From the NCBI GenBank assembly GCA_965208125.1, contig OZ242320.1, forward strand, positions 3,648,001 through 3,712,000: DNA of 64,000 bases. The letters run 5' to 3'. Source of the DNA: Candidatus Latescibacterota bacterium. Its GTDB lineage: Bacteria > Latescibacterota > UBA2968. This document shows, piece by piece, positions 31,048 through 54,386 of the stretch. Positions within the stretch are counted from its first letter, which is position 1. Every line of letters starts with the position of its first letter. Made by a program: the position numbers and the translations under genes. The notes under the pieces were generated by a model. That model did not search any database. It saw only the letters and a program-made list of their open reading frames with translations, and had not been told where the DNA came from.

Positions 31048-32607
31048 ATGCGTATTTTTTTAGTTGTACATTTCATGGTATTTCTATTCTTCAGTCCTGT
31101 ATTTTCAGAAATAGATGTTGGTGTCGTATCTGAAAGTATTGTGCAGGTGCGTGCGTACAAGAATAACAGAATTATAGCTGAAGGAAGCGGCTTTGTTGTC
31201 AATGAGGAAGGGTATGTGCTAACCAATGCACATCTTTCAGCAGATGCGGAAAGATTAACTGTATTAGCCTTCAAAACAGGTGTCGAGATCGTGTCACAGC
31301 AGGTCTTTGCCAACCGGGATTTAAATCTCGCTTTATTGCGAGTACAGGGACTGGGTTTACCGTCCCTCAACTTATCCGAGCAAGGATCCGCTGTGGGGCG
31401 GGTCGTGCAAACCCTGAAGTTGACTCTTCAGGATAGTATCCAGATTGCTCGCGGGACTATTGGTGCATACCAGGATGTGCCGGGAAAAAAAGTGAGTGAT
31501 CCCGTGGCACATTTGCTACAGCACAATGCCATAGTGACTTCCAAAGCATTCGGTATGCCACTGTTTAATGAGTGTGGGGATGTTATCGCTATCAATCTGC
31601 CAGATCCGGATAGCGGACGCTGGCCGTTTCGGAAAGCAGCCCCCAAAGGAATAATTTTTGCCTTGCGTAGTAGCGATATCATTGCCGTGCTTAAAGACTT
31701 GGAAATTGCACATTCATTGGTTGAGGAAGAATGCTTGAGTGCCGTGGAACGAGCTGAACGAGATAGAAAAATCGCAGAAGGTCGTATCAAAGCGGCACAA
31801 GATAGTGCCCAGGCAATAGCAAAAGCGGCAAGAGATAGTGTTAGTGCAGAAAGAGCTGCCCGGTTGGCGGCAGAAAGAGCGATCAGAGCTAAGCAACAAG
31901 AGGCCGAAAAAGCAAAAGCACGGGCAGATTCAGCAAGCAAGGCGGCAATAGATAGTATCAATACAGCCCGGCTGGCATTAGAACGAGAAAAGGCTAAGAC
32001 AGATTCGTTAAAGAAGGCGACACAGGAGCGTATTGCCGCTCAAAAAGCAGCAGATAGTCTCGCCGTAGTGCATCAAGAGGCGCGTGAGAAGACATCGCAA
32101 AGATTGCAATGGGCCATCGTCTCTGGGGGCACTGTGGTCATTCTGGTGCTTCTCGGCTGGTTCATTTTCGCGCGTAGTAAAAAGGCACAATTGCAGAGTG
32201 CCGCCTCTCGTTTGAGCGAGGCAGAACAAGAGGCTGAAGTCGCGCGACAGGCCGTGGCAGAGGCACCACAGCCCGCGCCTTTCAGATGTCTATTAGAAGG
32301 TCAAGATAACACAGGCCAACCCTTTGCACTGAGTATATCGGCATTAGCCCTTGGTACGTCTTCAGGTGCCACACTTGGGAGAAGCCCTGCCAATGCGGAA
32401 TTTATTATTGACCACGAGGCCGTATCTCGTGAACACATCAGGCTTTTCTATACCAATGAACATCTCTATACAGAAGATCTGAACACTCTGAACGGCACTA
32501 AGATCAATGGTCGCCTGCTCAATCCGCACGAATCAGTGGTATTGCAAAACAATGATCAACTCGAGTTGGGGCCTGTTGTTTTTCAAGTGCGTTTGATGCA
32601 GGAGTGA
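31048..32607 (+). CDS. Inactive trypsin-like domain + coiled coil + TM + FHA protein
   Basis: Signal peptide; GSGF and TNAH present but GNSGGP replaced by KAFGMP; TM WAIVSGG..WFIF; FHA GRSP/SREH/NGT. Confidence 0.85.
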   Translation: MRIFLVVHFMVFLFFSPVFSEIDVGVVSESIVQVRAYKNNRIIAEGSGFVVNEEGYVLTNAHLSADAERLTVLAFKTGVEIVSQQVFANRDLNLALLRVQGLGLPSLNLSEQGSAVGRVVQTLKLTLQDSIQIARGTIGAYQDVPGKKVSDPVAHLLQHNAIVTSKAFGMPLFNECGDVIAINLPDPDSGRWPFRKAAPKGIIFALRSSDIIAVLKDLEIAHSLVEEECLSAVERAERDRKIAEGRIKAAQDSAQAIAKAARDSVSAERAARLAAERAIRAKQQEAEKAKARADSASKAAIDSINTARLALEREKAKTDSLKKATQERIAAQKAADSLAVVHQEAREKTSQRLQWAIVSGGTVVILVLLGWFIFARSKKAQLQSAASRLSEAEQEAEVARQAVAEAPQPAPFRCLLEGQDNTGQPFALSISALALGTSSGATLGRSPANAEFIIDHEAVSREHIRLFYTNEHLYTEDLNTLNGTKINGRLLNPHESVVLQNNDQLELGPVVFQVRLMQE

Positions 32608-32610
32608 AAA

Positions 32611-33930
32611 TTGCAATCGATATGCAACTATTGGCGTCTTGTCGGTCTTGTTTTCGCGTTTCTGTTTTTTTCGCGCGATGCTGTCGCCGCGCCAGACTTT
32701 GATGCGCTTGAGAAGAGTGTTGTACGTATTGTAACGCAGACAAATCAGGGGATTGGTACGGGTACTGGATTTATAATTAACGATCAAGGTTATATCGTCA
32801 CGAACGTACACGTTATTGCCGGTAGCAATTTGATCAAAGCAATACCGACAAATTCCAATGCACTGTACGATGTTGAAGTGATTGCCATGTCCCAGGAACT
32901 CGATCTGGCAATCGTACGCGCACCAGGGATCAATCTTCCACCGATTACGCTTTCGCTCGCGCCATCGAGAAAGGGGCAAAAGGTATGGTCTATTGGTTAC
33001 CCAGGCGGAGCCGATAGGAACAGACCTGCCCACGATCCAACTGTGCAGGATGGTGTTATAGGTAGAATTTTTTCAGGTGCATGGAAGGTACAAAAATTCA
33101 GGATTATTCAACACAACGCGCCTACGAACCCCGGTAACAGCGGCGGTCCTTTATTGGACGACTGTGGAAGGGTGATCGGTGTTAATACGCAAGCGTCTCT
33201 CGTCGTGATTGCCAGCCCATCTGATGGAGTAACGCGGGTGCCACACGCGGCGGGTATTTATTGGTCTTCCCATATTGAGGAATTAGCAAAACTGTTACGT
33301 GAAAATACAATTTCTTTTCAGTCGGACGACGATGAGTGTTTGGCGGCTGATTCTACTGGGCGTTCTGCGGAGGTGGAAAGAACGCGCCGGGAGGCGGACC
33401 AAGCAAAGAGTCAAGCAGATGATGCGAGCCAGAAATTTCTTATTTGGGTGATATTATTGGGTGCTGTGGCTGTGGTCGCTCTTATACTTGCTTTGAAGAA
33501 ACCTCGGCAGCAGATCATTCACGCTGCAGACCATATCAGCCGACGCCTTAAGGCAAAAGAACCTGCTGAGGCTGTTCAAAAACGAGCATCGGAAAAACTT
33601 CCAGAATACGGTCTGATGCTGACCGGGTTTGATGGTAATGGCAATCCCATCCGCATTGCTTTACCGCCAAACAGATTCGCTGGTCAGCGTCTGGGGCTTT
33701 CATTGGGCAGGCATCCCGAGTTGGTGGATGAAATTATCCATGACCAAAATGTGTCGAGGCGGCATATGCGAATAGCGGTGCAAGCGGGTCAATTTTATAT
33801 TGAAGATTTGAACTCTCGTAACGGCACTTTTCTGAATCACCACAAATTGTCTCCGTTTAAGCCAATGCTTTTAGACTATGGTGCGATAGTGAGATTGGGT
33901 GGTTTAGAGTTCATGATTTCAAAACAGTAA
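32611..33930 (+). CDS. Active trypsin-like serine protease + TM + FHA protein
   Basis: Signal peptide; triad TNVH/DLAIV/GNSGGPL; TM; FHA GRHP/SRRH/NGT. Confidence 0.92.
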   Translation: MQSICNYWRLVGLVFAFLFFSRDAVAAPDFDALEKSVVRIVTQTNQGIGTGTGFIINDQGYIVTNVHVIAGSNLIKAIPTNSNALYDVEVIAMSQELDLAIVRAPGINLPPITLSLAPSRKGQKVWSIGYPGGADRNRPAHDPTVQDGVIGRIFSGAWKVQKFRIIQHNAPTNPGNSGGPLLDDCGRVIGVNTQASLVVIASPSDGVTRVPHAAGIYWSSHIEELAKLLRENTISFQSDDDECLAADSTGRSAEVERTRREADQAKSQADDASQKFLIWVILLGAVAVVALILALKKPRQQIIHAADHISRRLKAKEPAEAVQKRASEKLPEYGLMLTGFDGNGNPIRIALPPNRFAGQRLGLSLGRHPELVDEIIHDQNVSRRHMRIAVQAGQFYIEDLNSRNGTFLNHHKLSPFKPMLLDYGAIVRLGGLEFMISKQ

Positions 33931-33946
33931 TGAGAATGCTTTGTAA

Positions 33947-34867
33947 ATGAAAAAACGCAACCGAGAAATTAATATTTTTAGCATGTCTGCTCTCGATCTA
34001 TTCGCTTCGGCAATGGGAGCTTTCATTTTAATTACCATTGTGCTGTTTCCCTTTTTTCCGAACTTGGGCGATTCATCGGAAAACATGGAAAAAGAAAAGG
34101 CCGAACTGTTACAGGAAAAGGCTAAACTACAACAGGAAAAGGCTAAACTACAACAGGAAAAGGCTAAACTACAACAGGAAAAGGCCAGATTGGAGCAAGA
34201 AAAAGCTAAACTACAACAAGAGAGAGCTAAACTGGAACAAGAAAAAGCCAAAACCCCCCAAAAAAATACCCCACTTGAAGAACGGGTTAAAGCTCTGCAA
34301 CAGGAGATTGATGACACATCTGTTTTATTGGGTATCAGGACCAAAGCAAAGAAGTTTGTGATGGTCGTGGATATGTCTGGCAGTATTTATCAACCAGGCA
34401 GCCAGGACTATCGCCGGTTCATTACATTGTCAGTACAGAATATGCTTGCTTCTTTTCAATCGGAGATAGAATTGGTTCTTATTGGTTTTCACGCCCCAAA
34501 TCGCAGGACACGATTGCACTATTGGCCTGAAAATAGGCATTATTTTCAGGTGCGGAAGAATACGCGAAATCGCGTTATAGCTACTATAAACAACTGGATG
34601 AGTCTCGTTAATGGTGGCACACCAACCCGTGAAGCTCTGTTGGCGGCATTGGCTCTCGATCCCGAAGAGATTATCCTCTTAAGCGATGGCGCACCCTCGG
34701 AAAATTGGCGGCAGGTCGTCAATGCTATAACAGTCAGAAACAGAAAAAAAATACCGATACACGCTGTTGCTGTTGGCAACTATGTCACAAAACGAGATTT
34801 TATCGATTTTTTGGTGCAGTTGACAGAGCGGAATCGCGGGTATCTCGTAGGTGCCAAACCCGGGTGA
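33947..34867 (+). CDS. Single-pass vWA protein with ExbD/MotB-like N-terminal helix and coiled-coil stalk
   Basis: Basic N-terminus, SALDLFASAMGAFILI helix, heptad repeats, MIDAS DMSGS/GGT/SDG. Confidence 0.85.
   Translation: MKKRNREINIFSMSALDLFASAMGAFILITIVLFPFFPNLGDSSENMEKEKAELLQEKAKLQQEKAKLQQEKAKLQQEKARLEQEKAKLQQERAKLEQEKAKTPQKNTPLEERVKALQQEIDDTSVLLGIRTKAKKFVMVVDMSGSIYQPGSQDYRRFITLSVQNMLASFQSEIELVLIGFHAPNRRTRLHYWPENRHYFQVRKNTRNRVIATINNWMSLVNGGTPTREALLAALALDPEEIILLSDGAPSENWRQVVNAITVRNRKKIPIHAVAVGNYVTKRDFIDFLVQLTERNRGYLVGAKPG
34091..34253 (+). repeat. 21-nt coding tandem repeat (QEKAKLQ)
   Basis: acaggaaaaggctaaactaca x3 perfect (34111-34173) plus about 4 degenerate copies. Confidence 0.9.
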
Positions 34868-34986
34868 GGAGAAGTGCGAAGTAGTAAAGTATGAGTTGGA
34901 GTTAAGGTGTTGGAAGATGTTTTAGAATCTCTGGGGGAGAGACTATGCGGATGAGACGCACGTGCACCCATTGAGAGGATTTCGGG

Positions 34987-35349
34987 ATGTCTAATTTTTT
35001 TATTTATCGAATCGGTCGCGGTTCAAATGTGGATATTCGCATTGATGATAGCACAGTTTCCCGCATTCACGCAGAGTTGGTTGTGACTGCGAAGGAGACA
35101 TATTATCTGACTGATTGCGATAGTAGCGGCGGGAGTTATGTTGCGAGAAATGGCGAGTGGGAACCTATTACGCAGGATTTTATAGCTCCGATGGATGCAA
35201 TTCTACTCGGTCGGTATCAGACGACCGTACAGCAACTCATGGCGATGATTAATCAAGGTAGCCAGGATGTAAGACGCAAGGATGATTTACCCGAAGGACC
35301 GGTGCGTCGCAATGTAGATACGGGTGAAATTATAGGAGACGAGGACTGA
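34987..35349 (+). CDS. Stand-alone FHA protein
   Basis: IGRG, VSRIH, DCDSSGGS; GAGGA RBS. Confidence 0.9.
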   Translation: MSNFFIYRIGRGSNVDIRIDDSTVSRIHAELVVTAKETYYLTDCDSSGGSYVARNGEWEPITQDFIAPMDAILLGRYQTTVQQLMAMINQGSQDVRRKDDLPEGPVRRNVDTGEIIGDED

Positions 35350-35350
35350 C

Positions 35351-36136
35351 ATGGCAATGGGTCAAACAGTAGAGACGAATCAACGCCTCATCGCATCAGG
35401 TTTCAGTTTAGTAATAGGTATTATTCTTATCGCGCTACTGAGTATTTTTTTTAACAGTCCCGATTCACAAGTGGGTGCTTTCTTGCTTGACCGTCACACG
35501 AAGAATTTTCCCTATCCATTTACGATCCAAAATATCATGTGGCTTATGTTTTGCATAGGCTGTGGCGAGTTGTGGGGGCGATTTAGCCAGTCCAATTTGG
35601 AGTTGAAGCAAATCTCAAAGCGGTATCTTCCAGAAGACGATTCGATTATGTTGCGGGCGCAGGATCTCGGTGCTCTCTATCAAAAGATGCGCCCAAGGGA
35701 AGGGGAACGGACTTTTTTCTTGCAACGCTTAATCACACGCTGTATTTTGCAATTTCAAGGGAGCAGATCCGTCAATCAGACCAATTCTCTGTTAAATTCT
35801 TCTCTGGAATTATTCCAGCACGAGCTTGAACTCAAATACACTATGCTGCGATATCTCGTCTGGCTGATTCCCACGATGGGCTTTATTGGCACAGTTGTGG
35901 GGATCGCCTTTGCACTGGATTATGCAGCGAGCATTGAAAATCCCCAGGATCCGACGTTGCTGGCGGAGATAACCGGACGGTTGGGTGTTGCGTTTTATAC
36001 GACCTTACTCGCCTTGATTCAATCGGCACTGTTAGTTTTTGCCCTGCATATCGCCCAAGGAAGAGAAGAGATGGCTTTGAATCAATCGGGGCAGTACTGT
36101 TTGGATAATTTAATTAACCGACTCTATGAAAAATAG
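35351..36136 (+). CDS. MotA/TolQ/ExbB proton-channel family protein
   Basis: LIPTMGFIGTVVGI and AFYTTLLAL channel helices; four TMs. Confidence 0.9.
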   Translation: MAMGQTVETNQRLIASGFSLVIGIILIALLSIFFNSPDSQVGAFLLDRHTKNFPYPFTIQNIMWLMFCIGCGELWGRFSQSNLELKQISKRYLPEDDSIMLRAQDLGALYQKMRPREGERTFFLQRLITRCILQFQGSRSVNQTNSLLNSSLELFQHELELKYTMLRYLVWLIPTMGFIGTVVGIAFALDYAASIENPQDPTLLAEITGRLGVAFYTTLLALIQSALLVFALHIAQGREEMALNQSGQYCLDNLINRLYEK

Positions 36137-36148: not shown

Positions 36149-36802
36149 ATGCCTGTTTATCGGGGACCCGATGGCAAGATTATTGAAGAAAAAACCAATA
36201 AGTTAGAAGATGTAACCCAGTCGACTGACAAGGCACAAAGACCTTTGCCACCAACACCACCGGGAAGCGGTCAAGCCGCCGGTGCGGGGCGTTTGGATGC
36301 ACCCACCCAGAAGATGGATGCGAGTGGTTCTTCATCCAATGCAATTACTGAGGAAAAGACTCGGGTCGTAGGTGGTCGTCGCAGGCAAGAAGATCAGCAG
36401 CGCTTGGAAGAACGCGCCGAGAAAGCCGATGGTATGGACGATCCAGTTGTTGGGTGGTTGGTTATTGTCGAGGGGCCGGGAAAGGGGAGGGCCATGCAAT
36501 TAGGTTATGGTTCTAATTCCATTGGCCGCGGGGAGACTGACCGTGTCAATCTCAATTTCGGTGATGATCAAATTTCGCGTAGCGGACATGCTATCATGAC
36601 TTACGATCCGCGTGGCAGAAAGTTTTACGTGCAGCACGGCGGTGGTACCAATCTGACCTACGTTAACGACCAGCCCGTGCTCATTCCGATTGAGCTGCCC
36701 GCACTGAGTCATATTAGCATCGGCAATACGATTCTGCGATTTGTGCCCTTATGTGGCGACGCATTTGATTGGCAGGATACGGGAGAAAATGCGCGAGAGT
36801 AA
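36149..36802 (+). CDS. FHA protein with disordered Thr-rich N-terminus
   Basis: PVVGWLVIVEGPGKG, IGRG, ISRSGH; AGGAGG RBS. Confidence 0.9.
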   Translation: MPVYRGPDGKIIEEKTNKLEDVTQSTDKAQRPLPPTPPGSGQAAGAGRLDAPTQKMDASGSSSNAITEEKTRVVGGRRRQEDQQRLEERAEKADGMDDPVVGWLVIVEGPGKGRAMQLGYGSNSIGRGETDRVNLNFGDDQISRSGHAIMTYDPRGRKFYVQHGGGTNLTYVNDQPVLIPIELPALSHISIGNTILRFVPLCGDAFDWQDTGENARE

Positions 36803-36835: not shown

Positions 36836-39316
36836 ATGAACGAAGCACAACATCCGATCCATGCCTTGCCTCAAGGATACCGACTACAGGAATACGAACT
36901 GGTACGCGTGCTCGGCTTCGGCGGCTTCGGCATGACCTATCTTGGCTTTGACCACAATCTGAACAAAGCTGTAGCCATCAAAGAATACCTGCCATCAGAT
37001 ATTTCCACCCGTACAAGCAATAATAGCGTTGTCCCACAAGCGAGCCAGTTTCAAGATGATTTTGAGTGGGGATTGGAGCGCTTTTTGGATGAAGCACGCA
37101 CCTTGGCTCGCTTTGACCATCGCAACATTATTAAAGTGTATCGTTTCTTTGAGGCACATGGCACGGCGTATATCGTGATGGAATATGCTGAGGGTGAGAC
37201 CTTGGCAGCATTTTTGGAACGCAAGGGGACGCTAACAGAAGCCGAACTCAGAGCGATACTATATCCGCTTCTGGATGGTCTGGAGGTGGTGCATCGTGCT
37301 GATTTTTTGCATCGGGACATCAAGCCTGGCAATATCATCATCCGGGATGAGGACAATTCGCCCGTGTTGCTGGACTTTGGTTCAGCGCGTCAGGCGATGG
37401 GAGCGAAGAGCCGTTCGGTTACGTCGATCATCACACCGGGATATGCGCCGATAGAGCAGTATTCGAGTCGAGGTGATCAGGGTCCTTGGACGGATATCTA
37501 TGCATTAGGTGGTGTATGCTATCGTACATTGACTGGTGAAGTGCCAGATGATGCGACGGATCGTGTTCGGGATGATCCACTTATTTCAGTAGTTGAGCTT
37601 TGTGCGGGTCAAGCGAGTTCTGGATTTTTATCTGCGATAGATTGGGCGTTGGTGGTGGATGAGGGTGATCGTCCGCAAAGTATAGGTGTATGGCGTACTG
37701 CGTTGGGGGAAGAAATACCAAGGAATGTGAGTGCTCAGCCGTCAATCACGGCGTCTGTGCCTGCCCCTCCATTGGAAGAAGAGAAGCGTGAGATAGTTGA
37801 TAGCATAGCTGGGAGGCAGCCTGATGCATTTCCATCGGAAAGAGAAAGGGGGACAAGAGGCAAGGTACTTGCTGTGATCATAAGCGTGGTTGTTGTCCTG
37901 ATTGTAGGCATAATTTATATTGATCAAGCTGAGAAGCAGCGTCAGGAGTTAGTAGCAGAACAAGCAAGACTGAAAAAAGAAAAAGCAAGATTGGCAGCAG
38001 AAAGAGCGCGAATAGCGGCAGAGCAAGCTGAGAAGCAGCGTCAAGAGCAAGCAGCATTGGAGAAGCAGCGTCAAGAGCAAGCAGCATTGGAGAAGCAGCG
38101 TCAAGAGCAAGCAGCATTGGAGAAGCAGCGTCAAGAGCAAGCAGCATTGGAGAAGCAGCGTCAAGAGCAGGCGAAAACAAAAGAAGAACTACAGGAACCA
38201 GTGTTGCACGGTGATGTGCGTCGAGGATTTTTAGGTGTACAGATTAGTGACTTAGATCCGGTGCGAGCTAAGGCTTTAGGGGCGTCCAATATCCAAGGCG
38301 TGGTAATTGAGCAGGTAATACCGGGAAAAGCTGCGGACAGAGCAGGTGTCAAGACCAATGATATTGCGATTGCAGTTGATGGTCACTCGGTGAGCGACGT
38401 AACCGAGTTGACTAGTCGGATCGGGCGTGTGCGTCCTGGTACAGAAGTCGAACTGTCAATATTGCGCAATGGTAGGAAGATGCGCATTAAGGTTGTTTTA
38501 GATGCATTGTCCGAGACAGTAGTGACTGCACATAGCCCGCTAAACAACCTGAACAATATTCAGCCTGGCCGACGTTTTAAGGACTGTTCCGTGTGTCCTG
38601 AGATGATCGTCGTTCCATCTGGTTCATTTACTATGGGGTCACCGTCCTCTGAAGTCGGACGTAAGGATACTGAAAGTCCGCAACGTCAGGTGCGTTTCAC
38701 TAGGCCATTTGCCGTGGGAGTCTATGAAGTGACATTTGAGGAATGGGATGCCTGTGTGAATGCGGGAGGATGTAACAACTCTTATCCTATTGATCAGAAT
38801 TGGGGGCGAGGCAACCGGCCCGTGATCAATGTGAGTTGGAACGATGCACAGGCTTATATACGGTGGTTATCTGAACGGACGGGCAAGCATTATCGATTAT
38901 TGAGCGAATCGGAATGGGAATATGTGGCGCGTGCAGGAACGACGACCCCATTTCATTTTGGAGCAACTATATCTACGGATCAAGCGAATTACAATGGCAA
39001 TTATACATACAACACTGGTCACAAAGGCCTATTTAGAAAAAAGACCTTACCGGTGGGAACGCTTTCACCGAACCAATTTGGTTTGTACGACATGCATGGC
39101 AATGTAATAGAGTGGACTCAGGACTGTTGGAACGACAGTTATAATCGAATATCGAGTAATGGGGCAACTCGTGAGTATGGGAACTGTGGTTTTCGCGTGA
39201 TTCGCGGTGGTTCGTGGTACAACGAACCACGGTATCTCCGCTCAGCAAATCGTGGTCGGGGTACGCGTGAGATTCGGAATGCCTATATCGGATTTCGTGT
39301 CGCCCGTACGTTCTGA
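36836..39316 (+). CDS. Ser/Thr kinase-TM-coiled coil-PDZ-FGE-sulfatase protein
   Basis: GFGGFG, AIKE, HRDIKPGN, DFG; TM; GFLGV PDZ; FTMGS, EWEY, YDMHGNV, RGGSW, GFR. Confidence 0.93.
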   Translation: MNEAQHPIHALPQGYRLQEYELVRVLGFGGFGMTYLGFDHNLNKAVAIKEYLPSDISTRTSNNSVVPQASQFQDDFEWGLERFLDEARTLARFDHRNIIKVYRFFEAHGTAYIVMEYAEGETLAAFLERKGTLTEAELRAILYPLLDGLEVVHRADFLHRDIKPGNIIIRDEDNSPVLLDFGSARQAMGAKSRSVTSIITPGYAPIEQYSSRGDQGPWTDIYALGGVCYRTLTGEVPDDATDRVRDDPLISVVELCAGQASSGFLSAIDWALVVDEGDRPQSIGVWRTALGEEIPRNVSAQPSITASVPAPPLEEEKREIVDSIAGRQPDAFPSERERGTRGKVLAVIISVVVVLIVGIIYIDQAEKQRQELVAEQARLKKEKARLAAERARIAAEQAEKQRQEQAALEKQRQEQAALEKQRQEQAALEKQRQEQAALEKQRQEQAKTKEELQEPVLHGDVRRGFLGVQISDLDPVRAKALGASNIQGVVIEQVIPGKAADRAGVKTNDIAIAVDGHSVSDVTELTSRIGRVRPGTEVELSILRNGRKMRIKVVLDALSETVVTAHSPLNNLNNIQPGRRFKDCSVCPEMIVVPSGSFTMGSPSSEVGRKDTESPQRQVRFTRPFAVGVYEVTFEEWDACVNAGGCNNSYPIDQNWGRGNRPVINVSWNDAQAYIRWLSERTGKHYRLLSESEWEYVARAGTTTPFHFGATISTDQANYNGNYTYNTGHKGLFRKKTLPVGTLSPNQFGLYDMHGNVIEWTQDCWNDSYNRISSNGATREYGNCGFRVIRGGSWYNEPRYLRSANRGRGTREIRNAYIGFRVARTF
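38030..38169 (+). repeat. 30-nt perfect coding tandem repeat (EKQRQEQAAL)
   Basis: gagaagcagcgtcaagagcaagcagcattg x4 plus a 20-nt partial copy. Confidence 0.95.
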
Positions 39317-45034: not shown

Positions 45035-46234
45035 ATGGATCTGTTAGACGGACGATTTGCCGCGCAGCAAATTCCCGGTGGGCGGGAATATCAGGAGGAC
45101 GATTACGGTCTGATTGAGCCGGGTGATCCCGATGCTGATGGAAGTGAGGTATTATTGATAGCCGATGGGATGGGTGGACACGTCAGCGGCGATACGGCGA
45201 GCAGGACGGTGGTCAAAACCTTTGTGGAGACCTATCACTGCACGGATGGACCGGTGCCGGATCGTCTGCGTGCTTGTCTCAATGCGGCCAATGATGCTCT
45301 CGCCGAAGCAATCAAAGAAAACCCTGAATTGGAGGGCATGGGATCGACTGTGGTCGCAGCCGTTGTTTCACAACACGGACTCGACTGGATCAGTGTGGGC
45401 GATTCCCCCTTGTGGTTGTTCCGCGATGGCAAGTTGCGCCGCCTCAATGCTGATCACTCTATGGCACCTGTGCTTGCGAACCTGGTGGCGGTTGGGCGCA
45501 TGACCGAGGAAGAAGCGGCGACGGATTCCAAACGCCATGCCCTGCGTTCGGCGGTTATGGGCGATGAGATTCACATGATTGATGTCTCATCGCAACCTGT
45601 TGCGATTCGGAAAAGCGACCGCCTGTTATTGGCGAGTGATGGTTTAATGACGCTTGAGGATGGGGAGATCGCGGGTATTTTACAGAATATGCAGGACGCA
45701 ACTTTGTCAGAAGTCGCCGATGCACTCATCCAAGCTGTGGAAGAGGTCGGACATCCCAATCAGGACAATACGACGGTGTTGCTCTATGCTCCGAAGGCCG
45801 ATTGTGGGGTGGAAACGCTTCCCGTCGATACTGCCGAGGAGGAGTCCAGACAGCGCGAGGAGACTCAGCGATCAGGGCGAAAGAAGGGCCTATTTTGGAT
45901 ATTGTTATGCGGGATCTTGATTGCACTTGGAGTAATCACGTATTGGATCACGTCGCGCACGCACCACAAAGAAGCAGCGTCTGAATCCCCACCTGCACCG
46001 CAGGTAGAGCCAACCAAACAGGATGTTTCTCCACCTGCTACGAGAACTCCTGATTTACCGGAAGTGCAACCGGAGGGCAAATCCCCACAGGCAGAGCCAC
46101 CTGCAAAGGATGCGCCAGCACAACTCGACACAGGCAAGGTGAATGAGGAATCACCGAAGAAAGAAACCGAAGATATTCCAGCGAAGCGATCAACAACACT
46201 CGACACCACAGCCCAATCGAAAGGAACGAGGTGA
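45035..46234 (+). CDS. PP2C-family Ser/Thr phosphatase with TM and Pro-rich tail
   Basis: REYQED, ADGMGGH, VGDS, ASDGL, DNTT; TM LFWILL... Confidence 0.95.
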   Translation: MDLLDGRFAAQQIPGGREYQEDDYGLIEPGDPDADGSEVLLIADGMGGHVSGDTASRTVVKTFVETYHCTDGPVPDRLRACLNAANDALAEAIKENPELEGMGSTVVAAVVSQHGLDWISVGDSPLWLFRDGKLRRLNADHSMAPVLANLVAVGRMTEEEAATDSKRHALRSAVMGDEIHMIDVSSQPVAIRKSDRLLLASDGLMTLEDGEIAGILQNMQDATLSEVADALIQAVEEVGHPNQDNTTVLLYAPKADCGVETLPVDTAEEESRQREETQRSGRKKGLFWILLCGILIALGVITYWITSRTHHKEAASESPPAPQVEPTKQDVSPPATRTPDLPEVQPEGKSPQAEPPAKDAPAQLDTGKVNEESPKKETEDIPAKRSTTLDTTAQSKGTR

Positions 46235-48264
46235 ACGACGCACACCACCGATTGGCACTGCCACAAGGTACCCGTATACAGGACTTTGAATTTCACCGCG
46301 TCTTAGGTCAAGGTGGTTTTGGCATCACTTATCTCGGCTGGAATATCGCGCTGGATATTCCCGTGGCGATTAAAGAGTATTTGCCTTCTGACCTTGCGAC
46401 CCGTGAATACGACCTGTCGGTAGTGCCACAGTCACCTCAAGCCGCGTCAGACTTTGAGTGGGGGCTGGAGCGGTTTATAGATGAAGCGAGAATATTGGCG
46501 CGTTTCCAACATCCAAACATTGTTCGTGTGCATCATTTTTTTCAAGCGCATAGCACGGCATATATTGTGATGGAATATGCCGAGGGAGAGACCTTGGCGG
46601 CATTTCTGGAACGCAGGGGGCCGCTGAGAGAATCTGAACTCAAAGCTATACTATATCCGATACTTGATGGTTTGGATGTGGTGCACCGGGCTGTTTTTTT
46701 GCATCGAGATATAAAACCGGGGAACATCATCATTCGCGATGAAGACAATTCGCCCGTGTTACTGGACTTTGGTTCAGCGCGTCAGGCAATCGGTACCAGA
46801 AGCCGTTCAGTTACATCAATTATCACGCCGGGTTATGCACCTATAGAGCAATATTCGAGTCGGGGAGATCAAGGACCCTGGACGGACATTTATGCATTGG
46901 GCGGCGTGTGTTATCGCGCATTGACAGGTCAAGTGCCGGATGATGCGACAGACCGGGTACGAAATGATCCACTCATTCCAGTTTTTGAGCGATGTGCAGG
47001 TCAAGCGAGTGCTGGGCTTCTCTCGGCGATAGATTGGGCGTTGGCAGTGGATGAAGGGGACCGCCCGCAAAGTGTGGCAGCTTGGCGTGTTGCGCTGGAG
47101 GGGGAGGTCCCAGGCAGTGTGGATGAGGAACTGTCAGTCACAAGGTCTGAAACCGTAGCCCGATCAGAAGTGCAGGATCAAGAGAGAGATGATGCCCCAC
47201 CTGTGCATTCTCCCAAGAAGCCCAAAGAGAAATTATTTGCTGCGTTTGCCTGCCTTTTCGCTCTGTTGATAGGAGGTGTCTATTATTATCACTATGAATA
47301 TCTCCCCGATCAGCGTCGTCAAGCACAGGAAGCGGAAAGAGAAAGACAAGCTATTGAGGAGGCAGAGCGTCGTCAGGCTAAAATAGCGGCATATGAGAGG
47401 AAATTTGAGGAAGTGTTGGGGCATAATGATTTTGATATGGCGGGTAGGTATGTGGATTCTATCCGAGCAGTTGATGATGATGCGTCAATGTTGTCAGATT
47501 TAGAAGGTCGTTTGTCTGCGGCACGTCAGGCTGATCAGCGTCGTCAGGCGCAAGCTGCATTGGAAAAGCAACGTCAAGCAGCGGAAAAAGCAAAACTGGC
47601 AGCAGAAAAAGTCGAACGCACGCGCCAGAGACAGGTATTTGTCGCAGAAGTGGGGCGTATGCCGTATCCAAGGGGGATGAACGATAAGGATGAGACCGAT
47701 CTGCACATTGTAGCTAAATTGAACCTGCCTATGCTGACTATATCCTTGCTGAATCAGGATGCCGGTGTCAACGCGAAGAACAATTTTGGATTTACGCCTC
47801 TGCACTTTGCTGCAATGGAAAATGCTCATGAGACAGCAGAGGTATTGCTGAAATATGGTGCTGATGCCAACGAGAAGGACAACTCTGGTTCTACGCCGTT
47901 ACACACTGCGGTAGAGAACAACGCTCTTGAAACGACAGAGATATTGCTCAAACACGGTGCTGATGTCAACGCGAAGAACTATTCTGGTCATACGCCGCTG
48001 CACACAGCGGCGGCGAATAATGCTCATGAGATAGCAGAGGTATTGCTCAAACACGGTGCTGATGCCAATGCGAAGAACAATTATGGCGATACACCACTGC
48101 ACAACGCGGGGTGGAAAAATAATCACGAGACAGCGGAGGTATTACTCAAACATGGAGCCGATGTCAACGCCAAGGACAAATATGGCAATACGCCGCTACA
48201 CAATGCTGTGGAAAAAAATAATTACGAGACAGTGGAGGTATTGCGGCGTTATGGCGGACGATAA
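46231..48264 (+). CDS. Ser/Thr kinase-TM-helical linker-ankyrin repeat protein
   Basis: GQGGFG, HRDIKPGN, DFG; TM; ankyrin repeats; GTGA overlap with PP2C. Confidence 0.93.
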   Translation: MNDAHHRLALPQGTRIQDFEFHRVLGQGGFGITYLGWNIALDIPVAIKEYLPSDLATREYDLSVVPQSPQAASDFEWGLERFIDEARILARFQHPNIVRVHHFFQAHSTAYIVMEYAEGETLAAFLERRGPLRESELKAILYPILDGLDVVHRAVFLHRDIKPGNIIIRDEDNSPVLLDFGSARQAIGTRSRSVTSIITPGYAPIEQYSSRGDQGPWTDIYALGGVCYRALTGQVPDDATDRVRNDPLIPVFERCAGQASAGLLSAIDWALAVDEGDRPQSVAAWRVALEGEVPGSVDEELSVTRSETVARSEVQDQERDDAPPVHSPKKPKEKLFAAFACLFALLIGGVYYYHYEYLPDQRRQAQEAERERQAIEEAERRQAKIAAYERKFEEVLGHNDFDMAGRYVDSIRAVDDDASMLSDLEGRLSAARQADQRRQAQAALEKQRQAAEKAKLAAEKVERTRQRQVFVAEVGRMPYPRGMNDKDETDLHIVAKLNLPMLTISLLNQDAGVNAKNNFGFTPLHFAAMENAHETAEVLLKYGADANEKDNSGSTPLHTAVENNALETTEILLKHGADVNAKNYSGHTPLHTAAANNAHEIAEVLLKHGADANAKNNYGDTPLHNAGWKNNHETAEVLLKHGADVNAKDKYGNTPLHNAVEKNNYETVEVLRRYGGR

Positions 48265-48297: not shown

Positions 48298-50013
48298 ATG
48301 ACCGGCGCACAACACCCCCTCAATGCTCTGCCACAAGGCCACAGGCTCCAGGAATACGAACTGGTACGCGTGCTCGGCTTTGGGGGATTTGGTATGACCT
48401 ATCTCGGCTTTGATCACAATCTGGACAAAGCCGTTGCGATTAAAGAATATCTGCCATCCGATATTGCTACCCGTACAGGCGATAATAGTGTTGTGCCACA
48501 AGCGAGCCAGTTTCGAGGTGATTTTGAGTGGGGATTAGATCGTTTCGTGGATGAGGCACGCGCCTTGGCCCGGTTTGACCATCGCAACATTATTAAAGTG
48601 TATCGTTTCTTTGAGGCACATGGCACAGCGTATATCGTGATGGAATATGCTGAAGGAGAAACCTTGGCAGCGTTTCTGGAACGCAAGGGGACGCTAACAG
48701 AGGCCGAACTCAGAGCGATACTATATCCGCTTCTGGATGGCCTGGAGGTGGTACATCGGGCTAATTTTTTGCATCGGGATATAAAGCCGGGCAACATCAT
48801 CATCCGCGATGAAGACAATTCTCCCGTGTTGTTGGACTTTGGTTCAGCGCGTCAGGCGATGGGAGCAAGGAGCCGTTCGGTTACGTCAATTATCACACCG
48901 GGTTATGCGCCAATAGAGCAGTATTCGAGTCGTGGGAATCAGGGACCCTGGACGGATATTTATGCGTTGGGTGGTGTGTGTTACCGAGCATTGACAGGAG
49001 AGGTGCCGGATGATGCGACAGAAAGAGTACGCCATGACCCGCTCATTCCAGTGGTTGAGCGGTGTGCGGAGCAAGTGGATGCTGGATTTCTTCTGGCGAT
49101 AGATTGGGCATTGGCGGTAGATGAAGGTGATCGTCCGCAAAATATCGGTACCTGGCGTACTGCACTGATAGGTAATTCGACAGATGATTCGATGGAAGCA
49201 GAAAAGCGTGAAGCGGTTGATGATACTGCCATTAGGGCTACTGAAGAAAAGCGTGAGGAAGAGGTATTTGTCGCAGAGGTGGGCCGCGTGCCATCCCCGG
49301 ATGCAGTGGACGATGATGGTGGGACCGACCTGCACCATGCAGCGGCTATGAGCCTACCCTTGATGACTATATCCTTACTGAAGCAAGGGGCAGAGGTCAA
49401 TGCGCAGGACAATGATGGCTTTACTCCGCTGCACTATGCGGCAGCAGGAAAAAATGCCCATGAGATAGCGGCCATGTTACTGAGTCATGGTGCTGAAGTC
49501 AACACGAGAAACAAATATGGCGAGACGCCGCTGTATTGGGCTGCGATGAAAAATGCTTGTGAGATGACCAAGGTCTTACTGAATTGGGATGCTGAAGTCA
49601 ACACGAAAAGCGAATATAGCCAGACGCCACTGCATTGGGCTGCGATGGAAAATGCACATGAGGCAGCAGAAGTATTGCTGAATCAGGGAGCTGAAGTCAA
49701 CGTGAAGGACAAATATGGCGAGACGCCGCTGCACCGTGCGGTGCGAGAAAATGCTCGTGAGATGGCTGATATTTTACTGAATTGGGGTGCCGAAGTCAAC
49801 ACAAAGAACAATTCCGGTAGCACACCACTGGACATTGCGGTGGGTAAAAATGCACATGAGATAGCTGAGGTCTTACACCAATGTCATAATGAGAGCTTGC
49901 GCCAGCCTCTCTATAAGGACAAAAAAACGAGATCTGGAAGTGGTGGATGCTTAGTGCTGGTAGTGGTGTTCTTAATCATAAAGGCATTCGTATTGGGAAT
50001 GATAGGCTGTTGA
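48298..50013 (+). CDS. Ser/Thr kinase-ankyrin protein with C-terminal hydrophobic anchor
   Basis: Kinase motifs, ankyrin repeats, no internal TM, terminal GCLVLVVVFLIIKAFVLGMIGC. Confidence 0.92.
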   Translation: MTGAQHPLNALPQGHRLQEYELVRVLGFGGFGMTYLGFDHNLDKAVAIKEYLPSDIATRTGDNSVVPQASQFRGDFEWGLDRFVDEARALARFDHRNIIKVYRFFEAHGTAYIVMEYAEGETLAAFLERKGTLTEAELRAILYPLLDGLEVVHRANFLHRDIKPGNIIIRDEDNSPVLLDFGSARQAMGARSRSVTSIITPGYAPIEQYSSRGNQGPWTDIYALGGVCYRALTGEVPDDATERVRHDPLIPVVERCAEQVDAGFLLAIDWALAVDEGDRPQNIGTWRTALIGNSTDDSMEAEKREAVDDTAIRATEEKREEEVFVAEVGRVPSPDAVDDDGGTDLHHAAAMSLPLMTISLLKQGAEVNAQDNDGFTPLHYAAAGKNAHEIAAMLLSHGAEVNTRNKYGETPLYWAAMKNACEMTKVLLNWDAEVNTKSEYSQTPLHWAAMENAHEAAEVLLNQGAEVNVKDKYGETPLHRAVRENAREMADILLNWGAEVNTKNNSGSTPLDIAVGKNAHEIAEVLHQCHNESLRQPLYKDKKTRSGSGGCLVLVVVFLIIKAFVLGMIGC

Positions 50014-50224: not shown

Positions 50225-51970
50225 ATGAACGACGCTCAACAACCTCTCAATGCTCTGCCCCAGGGCCACCGGCTCCAGGAATACGAACTGGTACGCGTGC
50301 TCGGCTTCGGGGGATTCGGCATGACCTATCTCGGCTTTGATCACAACTTGGACAAAGCCGTTGCTATCAAGGAATACCTCCCATCCGATATTGCCACCCG
50401 TGCAAGCAATAATAGCGTTGCTCCGCAGGCCAGTCAGTTTCACGATGATTTTGAATGGGGATTGGGTCGTTTCTTAGATGAAGCCCGCGCCTTAGCCCGG
50501 TTCGATCATCGCCATATCATTAAAATACATCGTTTCTTTGAGGCACATGGCACAGCGTATATCGTGATGGAATATGCTGAAGGTGAGACCTTGTCGGCGT
50601 TGCTGGAACGCAAAGGGACATTGAGAGAAGCTGAACTCAGATCGATACTATATCCGCTTCTTGATGGTCTGGAAGTGGTGCATGGGGCTGATTTTCTACA
50701 TCGGGATATAAAGCCTGGCAATATCATCATTCGTGATGAGGACAATTCGCCAGTGTTGTTGGACTTTGGTTCAGCGCGTCAGGCGATAGGAGCAAGGAGC
50801 CGTTCAGTTACGTCGATCATCACGCCGGGATATGCGCCTATAGAGCAGTATTCGAGTCGGGGAGATCAGGGGCCATGGACGGATATCTATGCGTTGGGAG
50901 GCGTATGTTATCGCGCACTGACGGGTGAGGTGCCGGATGATGCGACAGATCGTATGCGGAATGATCCGCTTATTCCAGTGATTGAGCGATACGCGGGGCA
51001 AGTGAGCGAGGAGTTTCTTTCTGCGATAGATTGGGCGTTGCAGGTAGATGAAGGGGACCGCCCGCAGAGTATCGTTGCATGGCGGGCTGTGTTGCAAGGT
51101 GAGACACAGGCCCTGCACGTCAATGAAGGTACAATCTCTGCTAGCCCAGTTGTGCTGCGTCCCAAGACTTCGGTGCCTACAGGCTCTGCACCCCCTGCGG
51201 CGGCACGTCAGGAGGAATTGGAACTTCAGGACAAGGTTGAGAATTTGGAAAGCAGGCATGGTCTGGAGTTTGTGTGGATAAAGCCTGGGACATTTAAAAT
51301 GGGTTCTCCGTCCTCTGAGAAGGACCGCTATGATAATGAAGGTCCAGTCCATATGGTGCGGATAAGCGAGGGATTTTGGTTGGGTAAGTGTGAAGTAACG
51401 CAAGGCCAGTGGGAGAGTGTGATGAGAACGCGGCCTTGGCAGGGAATATTCAAAATCAAGCGTTATGTGCGTTCAGGTGCGAATAATCCAGCGGTATATA
51501 TCTCTTGGAATGATGTTCAAAAATTTATTGGTCGGTTGAACGCGGCGGCGGGTTCAAAAGTATATCGTTTGCCTACTGAAGCAGAGTGGGAGTATGCGTG
51601 TCGGGCAGGGACGCGTACGCGTTGGTCTTTTGGTGATGATGAGAGCCAATTGAAACATTATGCGTGGTATGCTGATAATGCGTTGGGTGAGAAGTATGGT
51701 CATAGCGTGGGGACAAAGCGAGCAAACCCTTGGGGGTTGTATGATATGCATGGGAATGTATGGGAATGGACACAGGATTGTTATAAAGATAGCTATTCGG
51801 GAGCACCCACTGACGGTTCTGCATGGAAGTCTCAGAACTGCGATATTCGCGTATTGCGTGGTGGTTCGTGGTACGACGAACCGAGGAGCTTGCGTTCGGC
51901 GAATCGCAGCAGGTACACCGCCGGGAACCGGTACAGCAGCGTCGGTTTTCGGATTGTCCGGCGTTTTTAA
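50225..51970 (+). CDS. Ser/Thr kinase-FGE-sulfatase protein, no TM
   Basis: Kinase motifs; FKMGS, RLPTEAEWEYACRAG, YDMHGNVWEW, RGGSW, GFR. Confidence 0.93.
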   Translation: MNDAQQPLNALPQGHRLQEYELVRVLGFGGFGMTYLGFDHNLDKAVAIKEYLPSDIATRASNNSVAPQASQFHDDFEWGLGRFLDEARALARFDHRHIIKIHRFFEAHGTAYIVMEYAEGETLSALLERKGTLREAELRSILYPLLDGLEVVHGADFLHRDIKPGNIIIRDEDNSPVLLDFGSARQAIGARSRSVTSIITPGYAPIEQYSSRGDQGPWTDIYALGGVCYRALTGEVPDDATDRMRNDPLIPVIERYAGQVSEEFLSAIDWALQVDEGDRPQSIVAWRAVLQGETQALHVNEGTISASPVVLRPKTSVPTGSAPPAAARQEELELQDKVENLESRHGLEFVWIKPGTFKMGSPSSEKDRYDNEGPVHMVRISEGFWLGKCEVTQGQWESVMRTRPWQGIFKIKRYVRSGANNPAVYISWNDVQKFIGRLNAAAGSKVYRLPTEAEWEYACRAGTRTRWSFGDDESQLKHYAWYADNALGEKYGHSVGTKRANPWGLYDMHGNVWEWTQDCYKDSYSGAPTDGSAWKSQNCDIRVLRGGSWYDEPRSLRSANRSRYTAGNRYSSVGFRIVRRF

Positions 51971-52320: not shown

Positions 52321-52382
52321 GCGCATATAATCGTTAATATCGACAATCGTGCTCAGGTAGAGTACGCGATAAGAGGAAGTAT

Positions 52383-53579: not shown

Positions 53580-53680
53580 ACGACGCACAGCACCGATTGG
53601 CACTACCACAAGGCACTCAAATACAGGACTTTGAAGATCCTCTTAGTGTAATAAATAGAAAAAGAAAGAGAATGGTATAG
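53576..53680 (+). pseudogene. Truncated kinase gene (first 20 codons only)
   Basis: MNDAQHRLALPQGTQIQDFE matches the start of the 46231 kinase, then AT-rich unrelated sequence and a stop. Confidence 0.85.
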
Positions 53681-53960
53681 AGATGTATTATTATTTTATA
53701 TTATATTTATTTTTAGTTTTACTTATGAATTTCGTTTTAGTATATTGTTCCTCTGAAGGGGCAGATCTTTATGGTAGAGGGTAGCTAAAGATAAAGGGCC
53801 GAATAGAAATTACTGAATAGCTATTTTAATTGTTAATTATTAAATCCATTGATAGGTAATAAGACCGCCGAATGGTGGTTTGTTAAATTACGGTGGCCTG
53901 ATGGGATAAAAAATTATCAACATCATCCATCAGACACCACAACCCAATTGGGAGGAAGAT

Positions 53961-54386
53961 ATGAATAAAAAACAAAAAGAAGTTAATGTTAACGCGCAGG
54001 ATAGCTCTGATCAGATGTTACTACACGAGGCGGCCAGTAGAAACGCTTTTGTGACAGTGGAGAAATGGCTGAGAAAAGGTCTTGATGCAAACACAAAGGC
54101 CCAAAATGGCGATACGCCGTTGCACTATGCGGCAAGGGCGTACGACGCTCCTGAAACGGCAAAGGTATTGCTCAAATACGGGGCTATGGTCAACGAGAAG
54201 AACATTTTTGGCAATACGCCGTTGCACTATGCGGCGGTACATGACTTTCCTGGGATGGCAAAGATGTTGATTGAACACGGTGCCGAGGTCAATGCGGAGA
54301 ACATTTTTGGCAATACGCCGTTGCACCGTGCGAATTCGTATAGATCTCATAAAACAGCAAAGGTGTTGGATCGTCACGGTGCGTGA
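53961..54386 (+). CDS. Stand-alone ankyrin repeat protein
   Basis: GGAGG RBS; GDTPLH and GNTPLH repeats. Confidence 0.88.
   Translation: MNKKQKEVNVNAQDSSDQMLLHEAASRNAFVTVEKWLRKGLDANTKAQNGDTPLHYAARAYDAPETAKVLLKYGAMVNEKNIFGNTPLHYAAVHDFPGMAKMLIEHGAEVNAENIFGNTPLHRANSYRSHKTAKVLDRHGA

Follow-up and report, generated by a model that had tools for sequence, protein, structure and literature searches.

Ion-driven motors of the 5:2 type form a small set (flagellar stators, Ton, Tol, gliding, type IX secretion and Zorya), and how they are switched on is mostly an open question. Kinase writers, PP2C erasers, FHA readers and vWA proteins are the elements of the threonine phosphorylation pathway of type VI secretion systems (T6SS; PpkA/PppA/Fha1), of the TerY-P triad (vWA/PP2C/kinase) and of archaeal ArnA/ArnB. 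The TerY-P triad consists of a soluble TerY-type vWA protein, a PP2C and a kinase, and is linked to Ter genes; the core genes of the T6SS include TssB/C, Hcp, VgrG, TssM and others. Here we analyzed a locus in which a motor-like gene pair stands together with such a circuit. It lies in a 64,000-nucleotide stretch of a Candidatus Latescibacterota bacterium genome (assembly GCA_965208125.1, contig OZ242320.1, positions 3,648,001 to 3,712,000), which we call the window and whose first letter is position 1. The locus at 31048-54386 (or from 30940) is a real gene cassette, conserved over several phyla and accessory in character. With moderate confidence we read it as an accessory envelope cassette in which a proton-driven motor, made of the products of g5 and g3, would be gated by a phosphothreonine circuit that is kinase-rich in this genome.

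The motor part is not wholly new. A 2025 paper (Mol Biol Evol; PMC12204202) predicted transmembrane-tethered vWA proteins with an Asp 'transpore helix' that replace TolR in tolQ-like motors, so that Asp-helix vWA/TolQ-like pairs had already been proposed. In the accessible text of that paper, the family consists mostly of heterologous vWA gene pairs, mainly from Proteobacteria and Verrucomicrobia. By its description there, the Idiomarina-anchored family of transpore-helix proteins is the one that g3 resembles (PMC12204202). As in that family, the tolQ-like gene stands without adjacent tolR or exbD and the Asp helix has no SHLS/His motif (PMC12204202). The 5:2 motor proposed in the accessible text rotates a periplasmic arm, and g3 of the window likewise has a predicted periplasmic vWA head. 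In contrast to the published pairs, a single g3 is found here, without a heterologous vWA partner, and many relatives of g3 carry non-vWA heads. The main text of PMC12204202 does not contain the word 'kinase', and 'FHA' occurs only within 'FhaC'; phospho-signalling and protease partners are therefore not described in it. A term search of a 2020 survey of NTP-dependent conflict systems, in its accessible text, returned no mention of ExbB or TolQ (PMC7159879). Likewise, literature searches that combined FHA, MotA/ExbB/TolQ, PP2C, vWA, trypsin, kinase and stator, and likewise on the host phylum, revealed no description of the cassette, subscription journals and supplements being outside their scope. 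The link of phospho-signalling to the motor is undescribed in the searchable literature.

Tol-Pal (TolQRA) and Ton (ExbBD-TonB) share with the locus the TolQ/ExbB fold and transmembrane signature, seen in g5, and an Asp helix, seen in its partner. In contrast to these systems, the locus lacks a canonical TolR/ExbD periplasmic domain as well as a TolA/TonB-type transducer, and genes for Pal/TolB or a TonB-dependent receptor are likewise missing; its additions are kinase, PP2C, FHA and (pseudo)protease genes. A further comparison is with the Agl-Glt gliding model of Myxococcus. According to the accessible part of its description, the FHA domain of GltG, next to a transmembrane helix, is predicted to attach to the AglR pentamer at its cytoplasmic face (PMC11761067). 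The likeness to AglRQS plus GltG lies in the combination of a TolQR-like motor with a single-pass membrane protein that has a cytoplasmic FHA domain (PMC11761067), and by analogy GltG on AglR may serve as a precedent for placing an FHA domain at a TolQ-like ring. The domain order is the opposite: as far as GltG is described there, an N-terminal FHA domain is followed by the transmembrane helix and a TonB-C-like periplasmic domain, whereas g1 and g2 run from a trypsin fold over the transmembrane helix to a C-terminal FHA domain. No other Glt genes are present here, and the sole sequence link is a generic FHA match to the GltG model, far under its cut-off.

The T6SS pathway, the TerY-P triad and ArnA/ArnB share with the cassette a kinase, a PP2C, an FHA domain and a vWA domain in one module. 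They differ in that here the vWA domain sits on a stator-type Asp-helix protein and not on a kinase or a soluble protein, that four FHA readers are present, two of them on (pseudo)protease membrane proteins, and that the TolQ-like channel is the most conserved member. A Pfam scan of 38 open reading frames (ORFs) of the window detected no T6SS, Ter or archaellum genes. The sole T6SS-related match was a generic FHA match to TagH under the NCBIfam cut-off, and a TerB domain was found on one kinase tail in a single related locus (L016). An initial annotation, made from the letters of the window alone, had stated that TerY-P, Zorya and T6SS match only in part. Our comparison leads to the same result, as parts of the logic are common and the defining features fail.

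The cassette comprises 16 ORFs, all on the + strand and co-directional. Among g1-g6 the gaps measure 1-33 nt, the g3-g4 gap of 119 nt excepted; beginning with the kinase array they range from a 4-nt overlap up to 412 nt. The G+C content is even throughout the window. Transmembrane segments and topology were called from a hydropathy scan and sequence inspection, and all sides of the membrane given below are predicted. The genes are as follows, with E-values of Pfam matches unless stated otherwise.

g1, 30940/31048-32607, + strand: Trypsin_2 (4.8e-16) and FHA (5.5e-15).
g2, 32611-33930, + strand: Trypsin_2 (4.7e-29) and FHA (1.9e-16).
g3, 33947-34867, + strand: transmembrane helix, coiled coil and a weak VWA match (E 6e-4, under the Pfam cut-off).
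g4, 34987-35349, + strand: small soluble FHA protein (FHA 1.4e-12), whose stop lies 1 nt before the g5 start.
g5, 35351-36136, + strand: predicted channel subunit of 261 aa with three transmembrane helices (MotA_ExbB, 39.5 bits, cut-off 22.9).
g6, 36149-36802, + strand: soluble FHA protein (FHA 4.1e-7) with a disordered N-terminal half.
K1, 36836-39316, + strand: Pkinase (4.1e-39), PDZ_2 (8.6e-14) and FGE-sulfatase (C-type-lectin-like, 7.2e-57); transmembrane helix 344-362, coiled coil.
orfX, 39439-40002, + strand: 187 aa with hydrophobic segments; gene status uncertain.
K2, 40410-42566, + strand: Pkinase (1.4e-39) and Ank (1.3e-49); transmembrane helix 344-362, coiled coil.
K3, 42588-44819, + strand: Pkinase (7.2e-39) and FGE-sulfatase (7.9e-53); transmembrane helix 344-362, coiled coil.
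P1, 45035-46234, + strand: PP2C_2 (2.2e-11), transmembrane helix 287-305, Pro/Glu/Thr-rich tail.
K4, 46231-48264, + strand: Pkinase and ankyrin repeats (Pfam); transmembrane helix, coiled coil.
K5, 48298-50013, + strand: Pkinase and ankyrin (Pfam); transmembrane helix 551-569 of 571 residues.
K6, 50225-51970, + strand: Pkinase (4e-38) and FGE-sulfatase (2.6e-58); no hydrophobic segment.
P2, 52383-53579, + strand: second membrane PP2C with a transmembrane helix and a low-complexity tail.
g16, 53961-54386, + strand: ankyrin-only protein of 141 aa (Ank_2 2.2e-39); no hydrophobic segment.

The ORF and Pfam calls bear out the gene list and order of the initial annotation for all but the last gene. 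The supposed small membrane protein at the end of the locus (53961-54386) is the ankyrin-only g16.

The evidence for a motor comes from g5 and g3. The AlphaFold2 (AF2) model of g5 reached a pLDDT of 84.5 and a pTM of 0.76. In a Foldseek search, TolQ (8vlw, 9avi) and ExbB (5zfp, 5sv0) were retrieved best, followed by MotA/PomA, with template-modelling scores of 0.5-0.65, a probability of 1.00 and E-values of ~3e-3. The model shows a TolQ/ExbB-type fold with three predicted transmembrane helices and a cytoplasmic helical domain. Within the transmembrane helices, residues P174, T175, G177, G180, T181, T217, T218 and S225 are invariant. A protein atlas search with g5 returned only clusters named MotA/TolQ/ExbB, and g5 also exceeded the PF01618 (MotA_ExbB) cut-off in a search of its own genome. 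This genome contains five MotA_ExbB-family genes, two of which are canonical ExbB/TolQ, and its three PF02472 ExbD genes adjoin these two. The same search placed no PF02472 gene beside g5, and no ExbD match was obtained in the 16 locus proteins at E<=0.01.

In place of an ExbD protein, g3 offers an N-terminal helix with a conserved aspartate. Asp17 is invariant in 46/46 aligned homologues and is present in each of the N-termini listed. The helix is near-identical across homologues and has no His or SHLS motif; it has the pattern S-M-x-A-x-D-[LIV]-x-F in common with the N-termini of the three ExbD proteins of the same genome. It is followed by a coiled-coil stalk (~residues 44-123) and a vWA head with a DxSxS MIDAS motif (DMSGS, 142-146). 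The AF2 model of g3 (pLDDT 80) matched the vWA domains of ITIH1 (best, 4.3e-07) and CLCA1 as well as BatB in Foldseek, so the vWA fold is confirmed at the level of the model and the transmembrane-coil-vWA order proposed for g3 stands. Residues 1-42 of g3 alone retrieved 572 protein clusters, with heads that are VWA-type or unannotated. Among the related loci the helix is constant and the head varies by lineage, being a vWA domain, a second vWA type or a ~100-aa beta domain without a Pfam match; one SAR86 member is labelled 'DUF2135 domain-containing' in UniRef. Two g3 copies occur in L030, L031 and L072 only (L numbers denote loci of our collection); the window, like most related loci, has just one.

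Because the Asp helix of g3 is ExbD/TolR-like, g5 has the TolQ/ExbB fold and no ExbD gene adjoins it, the g5-g3 pair looks like a stator unit bearing a periplasmic arm. From homology and synteny we infer a TolQR-like unit whose inner subunit would carry an exchangeable periplasmic head. The 'ion-driven motor' of the initial annotation is strengthened by these results. Co-folding of four (not five) copies of g5(70-258) with g3(3-45) gave a score of 0.02 and a mark of 0.32, values that speak neither for nor against binding.

Two further divergent MotA_ExbB loci are found in the same genome (L086, G000:C1:4858000-4871000, and L087, G000:C1:3919000-3931000). One of the two divergent genes encodes 437 aa and has a weak ExbD-like neighbour, with a PEGA protein nearby; the other encodes 253 aa and lies beside an AAA_21/AbiEii-like ATPase. 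They were considered as examples of the published vWA pairs and rejected, as neither has vWA neighbours.

The link between motor and circuit rests on gene neighbourhoods. A search with g5 yielded 2186 homologues at E<=1e-5, and among 120 listed the identity was 58-93%. In a scan of 185,579 species, with one genome per species, 503 g5-related loci were obtained. The best 80 of these were analyzed, and 61 of them had full 10-kb flanks. Partners were detected by a crude method, in which pieces of the window proteins were compared with the six-frame ORFs of the related loci, and the counts refer to the same strand as the g5 relative. The numbers of fully flanked loci (of 61) with each partner were as follows.

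g6-type FHA: 58.
Kinase: 58.
PP2C: 57.
g3-type: 56.
Trypsin-FHA: 50.
g4-type FHA: 46.

All five classes of g6, PP2C, kinase, g3-type and trypsin-FHA, with g4 not required, were found together in 46/61. A neighbourhood survey had been set beforehand as the check for a conserved core with a variable kinase tail, and this is what was found. Across the best 80 loci, g4-type genes, next to g5, were detected in 60/80 and g6-type genes in 76/80. Carriers among the best 80 are Latescibacterota (the majority), several gammaproteobacterial groups, Gemmatimonadota, Binatia, Acidobacteriota, Alphaproteobacteria, Rhodothermales, Longimicrobiales and an Acidimicrobiaceae bin. In Latescibacterota the order is g1-g2-g3-g4-g5-g6-PP2C-kinase; in Gammaproteobacteria and Binatia it is g4-g5-g6-PP2C-g1-g2-g3-kinase. 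Since the same gene set recurs in other phyla in a different order, the linkage is more than chance. No further gene family is common to all lineages, as 2167 unassigned ORFs from the 80 loci clustered only into lineage-restricted families.

The cassette was present in 35/168 genomes of the phylum and in 9/20 other genomes of the genus, with up to three copies per genome; eleven near-complete genomes of the genus are without it. In the cultured marine gammaproteobacterium LSUCC0112 (L043), housekeeping genes enclose a compact 8-gene version of the cassette. A variant on a 1.33-Mb replicon of Rhizobium leguminosarum BT01 (L085) encodes two kinases (PDZ, PAN), two PP2Cs, g4, g5 and g6; a g3-like gene is also present, and an FHA-tailed membrane protein encoded there has no trypsin fold. 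When 72,556 plasmids were searched, a relative was found on one large rhizobial replicon only, and no g5 relative was found in phage records.

The kinases have their catalytic motifs intact. K1-K6 scored 131.8-136.5 bits against the Pkinase model (cut-off 31.7), and VAIKE, HRDIKPGN and DFGSAR are present in all six. All six also carry the activation loop SRSVTSIITPGY. All four FHA domains (g1, g2, g4, g6) have the GR...SRxH phosphothreonine-binding signature. g6 matched the FhaB/FipA-like family of NCBIfam (6.7e-13) and P1 the Stp1/IreP-type family (3.7e-42), both under cut-off. Thus six Hanks-type Ser/Thr kinases, two membrane PP2Cs and four FHA domains had been named correctly, with the catalytic motifs of the kinases and the FHA signatures kept. 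In the disordered half of g6, Thr motifs (EEKT16, T53, EEKT71) are conserved over 74 aligned sequences, with S/T at position 71 in 100%, at 16 in 93% and at 53 in 91%.

The cassette kinases form one subfamily, since 113/118 long kinase ORFs of the related loci scored >=250 bits against the K1 kinase domain. In its own genome the K1-type subfamily is confined to the locus, with six matches at E<=1e-20. An activation loop of the type S-x-S-V-T-S-I-[IV]-T-P-G-Y was found in 95/113 subfamily kinases; the pattern was unmatched in 16 and the motif is lacking in 2. A T-x-x-[ILV] site, proposed as pT-x-x-I for the activation loop, is thereby present in all six kinases of the window and in these 95 of 113 relatives.

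Outside the kinase domain the proteins diverge. The tails of K1-K6 are, in this order, PDZ plus FGE-sulfatase, ankyrin, FGE, ankyrin, ankyrin and FGE, and the PDZ domain of K1 is of the HtrA type (Pfam, NCBIfam). Kinase domains within the window share 71-91% protein and 79-86% DNA identity. K4 is the most diverged paralogue (71-74% to the other five), and K1 and K2 share 90% identity in their first 330 residues. In contrast, the FGE domains of the window are only 46-55% identical to one another. P1 and P2 share 87.9% amino-acid identity, and 91% DNA identity over 1405 bp including the upstream region; judged by this similarity, P2 is a recent duplicate of P1. In the related loci, tails with FGE, ankyrin, Sel1, DUF4328, TerB plus DnaJ, PEGA, a peptidoglycan-binding domain, a staphylococcal-nuclease fold or PDZ plus PAN were found. 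Sel1 was assigned to 12/39 otherwise unassigned tails, TPR tails were also seen and many tails had no match. Each flank contains 0-5 kinases, compared with six in the window; as the flanks end at 10 kb, the flank counts are minimum values. The close relatives L001 and L078 have differing kinase arrays. From these sequence comparisons, kinase tails are freely swapped between loci on a constant core.

Two of these tails, the staphylococcal-nuclease fold at L079:5085-5642 and TerB plus DnaJ at L016:3108-3833, could be effector-like or stress-linked variants. A diversity-generating retroelement acting on the FGE domains was considered and rejected. No RVT_1 was found in the 96%-complete genome, and a self-comparison of the window revealed no template-like repeat; without a reverse transcriptase in the genome, the FGE domains are not retroelement-diversified here.

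The first two genes form a pair of membrane proteins with FHA tails. The start of g1 at 31048 corresponds to Met37 of the longest ORF (555 aa, from 30940) and gives a signal-peptide-like N-terminus. Hydropathy and sequence indicate for g1 a signal peptide, a periplasmic trypsin fold, a long coiled coil, a transmembrane helix (392-410 in 555-aa numbering) and a cytoplasmic FHA domain; for g2 they indicate a signal peptide, a periplasmic trypsin domain, a coiled coil, a transmembrane helix (277-295) and a cytoplasmic FHA domain. The catalytic triad of g2 is kept (H67/D98/S177), and g2 is an active-looking, HtrA/MarP-like predicted protease. In g1 the triad columns read H-N-F, and by its residues the protein is catalytically dead. 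Over 96 proteins from the window and the related loci, the H-D-S triad was present in 43/44 g2-class and in 0/52 g1-class orthologues, which marks g1 and g2 by sequence as an old live/dead pair. The initial annotation had described a dead and an intact trypsin-transmembrane-FHA protein, and this holds.

Its further suggestion, that periplasmic proteolysis is switched on, fails as a general output. At least 10 loci (L025, L029, L033-L037, L039, L046, L047) contain only the dead g1-type trypsin-FHA, and in the Rhizobium variant a trypsin domain is absent altogether, so proteolysis cannot be the universal output. Within the dead-only subgroup, giant proteins with collagen repeats plus LRR, WD40 plus LRR, CARDB plus LDL-receptor-B and cadherin-like domains flank the cassette on the same strand in L025, L033 and L035 (for example L035:1-3681, 4402-6291, 14344-17733 and 17733-20777). 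It is conceivable that the vWA head is linked to collagen-like proteins.

From these data we propose the following model, in which contacts, signalling direction and biological role are inferred from domain content, predicted folds and topology, catalytic residues and co-occurrence. The g5 channel would pair with g3 in place of the canonical TolR/ExbD, and the invariant Asp helix of g3 would act as the proton-binding inner helix of a 5:2 stator. The coiled-coil stalk would hold the MIDAS-type vWA head out in the periplasm, and the motor would turn or pull this arm. In the circuit, membrane Hanks kinases would write, PP2C would erase and the four FHA domains would read, two of them in the soluble g4 and g6 and two as tails of g1 and g2. 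Binding of a ligand or clustering of the kinase tails would first activate the kinases. These would then phosphorylate their own T-x-x-[ILV] activation loop and the EEKT motifs of g6. FHA domains would dock on these marks, and g4, g6 and the g1/g2 tails would be assembled or released at the cytoplasmic face of the g5 ring, by which the motor would be gated. Finally, PP2C would reset the system. As a role, envelope or surface surveillance or remodelling is favoured over classical anti-phage defence.

A more far-reaching version of this model is speculative, and we regard it as unlikely. In it the cassette would be a self-contained phosphothreonine-gated envelope machine of an undescribed kind, whose swappable kinase tails detect foreign or host ligands. 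FHA assembly at the cytoplasmic face would unplug the motor, and the spinning coiled-coil arm with a vWA or beta-domain head, helped by the pseudoprotease/protease pair, would exert mechanical action on a periplasmic or surface target, with a role in immunity or at the symbiont-host surface.

Several observations weigh against a phosphothreonine-gated motor. The Foldseek E-values of g5 are weak, though template-modelling scores and probabilities are consistent. The Pfam ExbD model fails to recognise g3 at E<=0.01, and the ExbD likeness rests on a short helix. With the crude detection used, 15/61 fully flanked loci are without at least one partner class, and in L074 and L080 signalling genes beside g5 and g3 are few or absent. 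Fusions of FHA domains to the channel were sought as evidence of contact, and only two longer g5 homologues were found, neither with an extra domain. The 384-aa FHA plus MotA entry P0039 was rejected as well, as its N-terminal half looks like an out-of-frame translation or frameshift artefact. The position of the kinase tails is a further point. K1-K4 have a transmembrane helix between kinase and tail, a coiled coil and a tail predicted outside. K5 is tail-anchored, from which its ankyrin domain is predicted to be cytoplasmic, and K6 has no transmembrane helix and is predicted to be soluble. Sensing of outside ligands is therefore not general. Of the 'variable ectodomains' in the initial annotation, the variability stands, and the outside position applies to K1-K4 only, the K5 and K6 tails being cytoplasmic. 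Finally, the flow of information could be reversed, so that the motor would sense and the kinases would deliver the output.

Anti-phage or anti-invader defence of a Zorya-like kind was also weighed and seems rather improbable to us. Here motor and kinase ectodomains would sense envelope damage or foreign ligands, and the output would be a proton leak, dormancy or periplasmic proteolysis. The patchy occurrence among close relatives, with several copies in some genomes, would fit, as would the highly variable tails on a constant core, with six similar kinase domains and different tails. Zorya also places a MotAB-like membrane motor in an accessory cassette, and PADLOC reported weak matches of g5 to ZorA (E 3e-4) and of g3 to ZorB (E 1e-3). 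In contrast to Zorya, the 261-aa g5 is without the long cytoplasmic tail of ZorA, g3 has a vWA head and no peptidoglycan-binding match, and the effectors ZorC, ZorD and ZorE had no PADLOC match in the locus. Also in favour of defence, there is a PIN toxin-antitoxin pair immediately upstream, and 5 other flanks contain PIN ORFs. Against defence, no system-specific model of PADLOC (2023 release) was matched, and the kinase, protease and PP2C matches are generic. Among ~127 non-system flank ORFs of 27 loci, only 7 matched PADLOC at E<=1e-15, all of them generically. This run comprised 136 of 208 selected ORFs; seven L043 ORFs (duplicates of the L040 flanks), the seven largest ORFs and 58 of later loci were omitted. 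Housekeeping genes flank the cassette in compact genomes. No conserved nuclease, NADase or pore-forming effector was found among the clustered locus ORFs, and neither phage copies nor plasmid copies beyond the single rhizobial replicon were detected. The placement of the system 'in defence' is therefore not upheld. In contrast, the earlier statement that T6SS, Ter or Zorya effector genes are missing agrees with the Pfam, PADLOC and NCBIfam scans, in which no system model matched.

Rather unlikely, too, is a force transducer for the surface, for host interaction or for gliding, in which the motor would pull a ligand of the vWA head (for example collagen-like or repeat surface proteins) and the kinases would tune it on contact. 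TolQ-like-driven vWA transducers with a possible gliding role have been proposed in the accessible text of PMC12204202, and Agl-Glt, as described in that of PMC11761067, joins a TolQR-like motor to an FHA-bearing membrane protein. As tails the kinases carry protein-binding repeats (ankyrin, Sel1, TPR) or else lectin-like and PAN domains, and giant collagen-repeat/LRR, WD40, CARDB and cadherin-like proteins flank one locus subgroup on the same strand. However, these giant proteins are limited to that subgroup, no outer-membrane component is conserved with the cassette and some g3 proteins have a head other than vWA. The cassette is also present in small free-living marine genomes with housekeeping flanks.

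Regulated proteolysis under envelope stress, in the manner of DegS or MarP, would make the active g2 the output and the remaining genes its regulators. The triad kept in nearly all g2 orthologues speaks for it, as do the HtrA-type PDZ domain of K1 and the resemblance of g2 to HtrA/Do and MarP (partial NCBIfam matches at 1e-24, all under cut-off). However, the dead-only loci and the trypsin-free Rhizobium variant argue against it, and 11/61 fully flanked loci have no trypsin-FHA gene within 10 kb; we judge this explanation decidedly improbable. An ordinary Ser/Thr cluster of TerY-P or T6SS type that merely neighbours an unrelated TolQ paralogue is scarcely credible and was already disfavoured, for although vWA, PP2C and kinase (plus FHA) modules are well known (for example the Deinococcus DRA0331-0334 operon, as far as its accessible description goes), the TolQ-like gene is the best-conserved member (55-94% identity across phyla), g5 stays beside FHA, PP2C and kinase genes despite rearranged order, the window has no T6SS or Ter genes by Pfam, and the vWA protein has a stator-type Asp helix, unlike soluble TerY.

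The surroundings of the cassette are unrelated to it. Upstream are a DUF255 thioredoxin-like gene, an oxidoreductase fragment and the PIN toxin-antitoxin pair, and downstream lies a mandelate-racemase-like gene. The VapBC-like pair directly upstream consists of an 80-aa ORF at 30140-30382 (+) that overlaps a PIN_3 ORF at 30379-30813 (+, E 9e-21); the flanks with PIN-family ORFs are those of L015, L021, L050, L053 and L062. Within the locus, orfX had no Pfam, PADLOC or NCBIfam match. It is the sole small ORF of the locus with hydrophobic segments and sits between K1 and K2; by eye only, its N-terminal part is like a small domain in cassette-adjacent ORFs of L025-type loci. Elsewhere in the window, at 56649-61722 (-), consecutive genes encode a transglutaminase-like protein, an alpha-E domain protein and two circularly permuted ATP-grasp proteins, a known and poorly understood set. 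In a 1650-aa ORF at 18229-23181 (+), a peptidase M28 domain is joined to a C-terminus of the FtsX-like permease type. An unusual outer-membrane-protein fusion is encoded by a 1113-aa ORF at 6603-9944 (+), with Peptidase_MA_2, PD40/WD40-like beta-propeller repeats and Omp85.

If the far-reaching version of the model held, a 5:2 ion-driven motor would for the first time be seen under the direct control of Ser/Thr phosphorylation. Motor and full kinase/phosphatase/FHA circuit are hard-wired together in at least nine major lineages, including the cultured LSUCC0112 and, as a variant, the genetically tractable Rhizobium. The interest of the cassette is high because the link is conserved over phyla, is undescribed in the searchable literature and is testable in cultured hosts. 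The constant core with its swapped kinase tails constitutes a natural experiment in sensor diversification. Should the link between circuit and motor be real, the cassette would provide a model in which phospho-control of a stator unit could be tested and a new role for bacterial Hanks kinases, and it would give a function to the recently predicted vWA 'transpore-helix' transducers.

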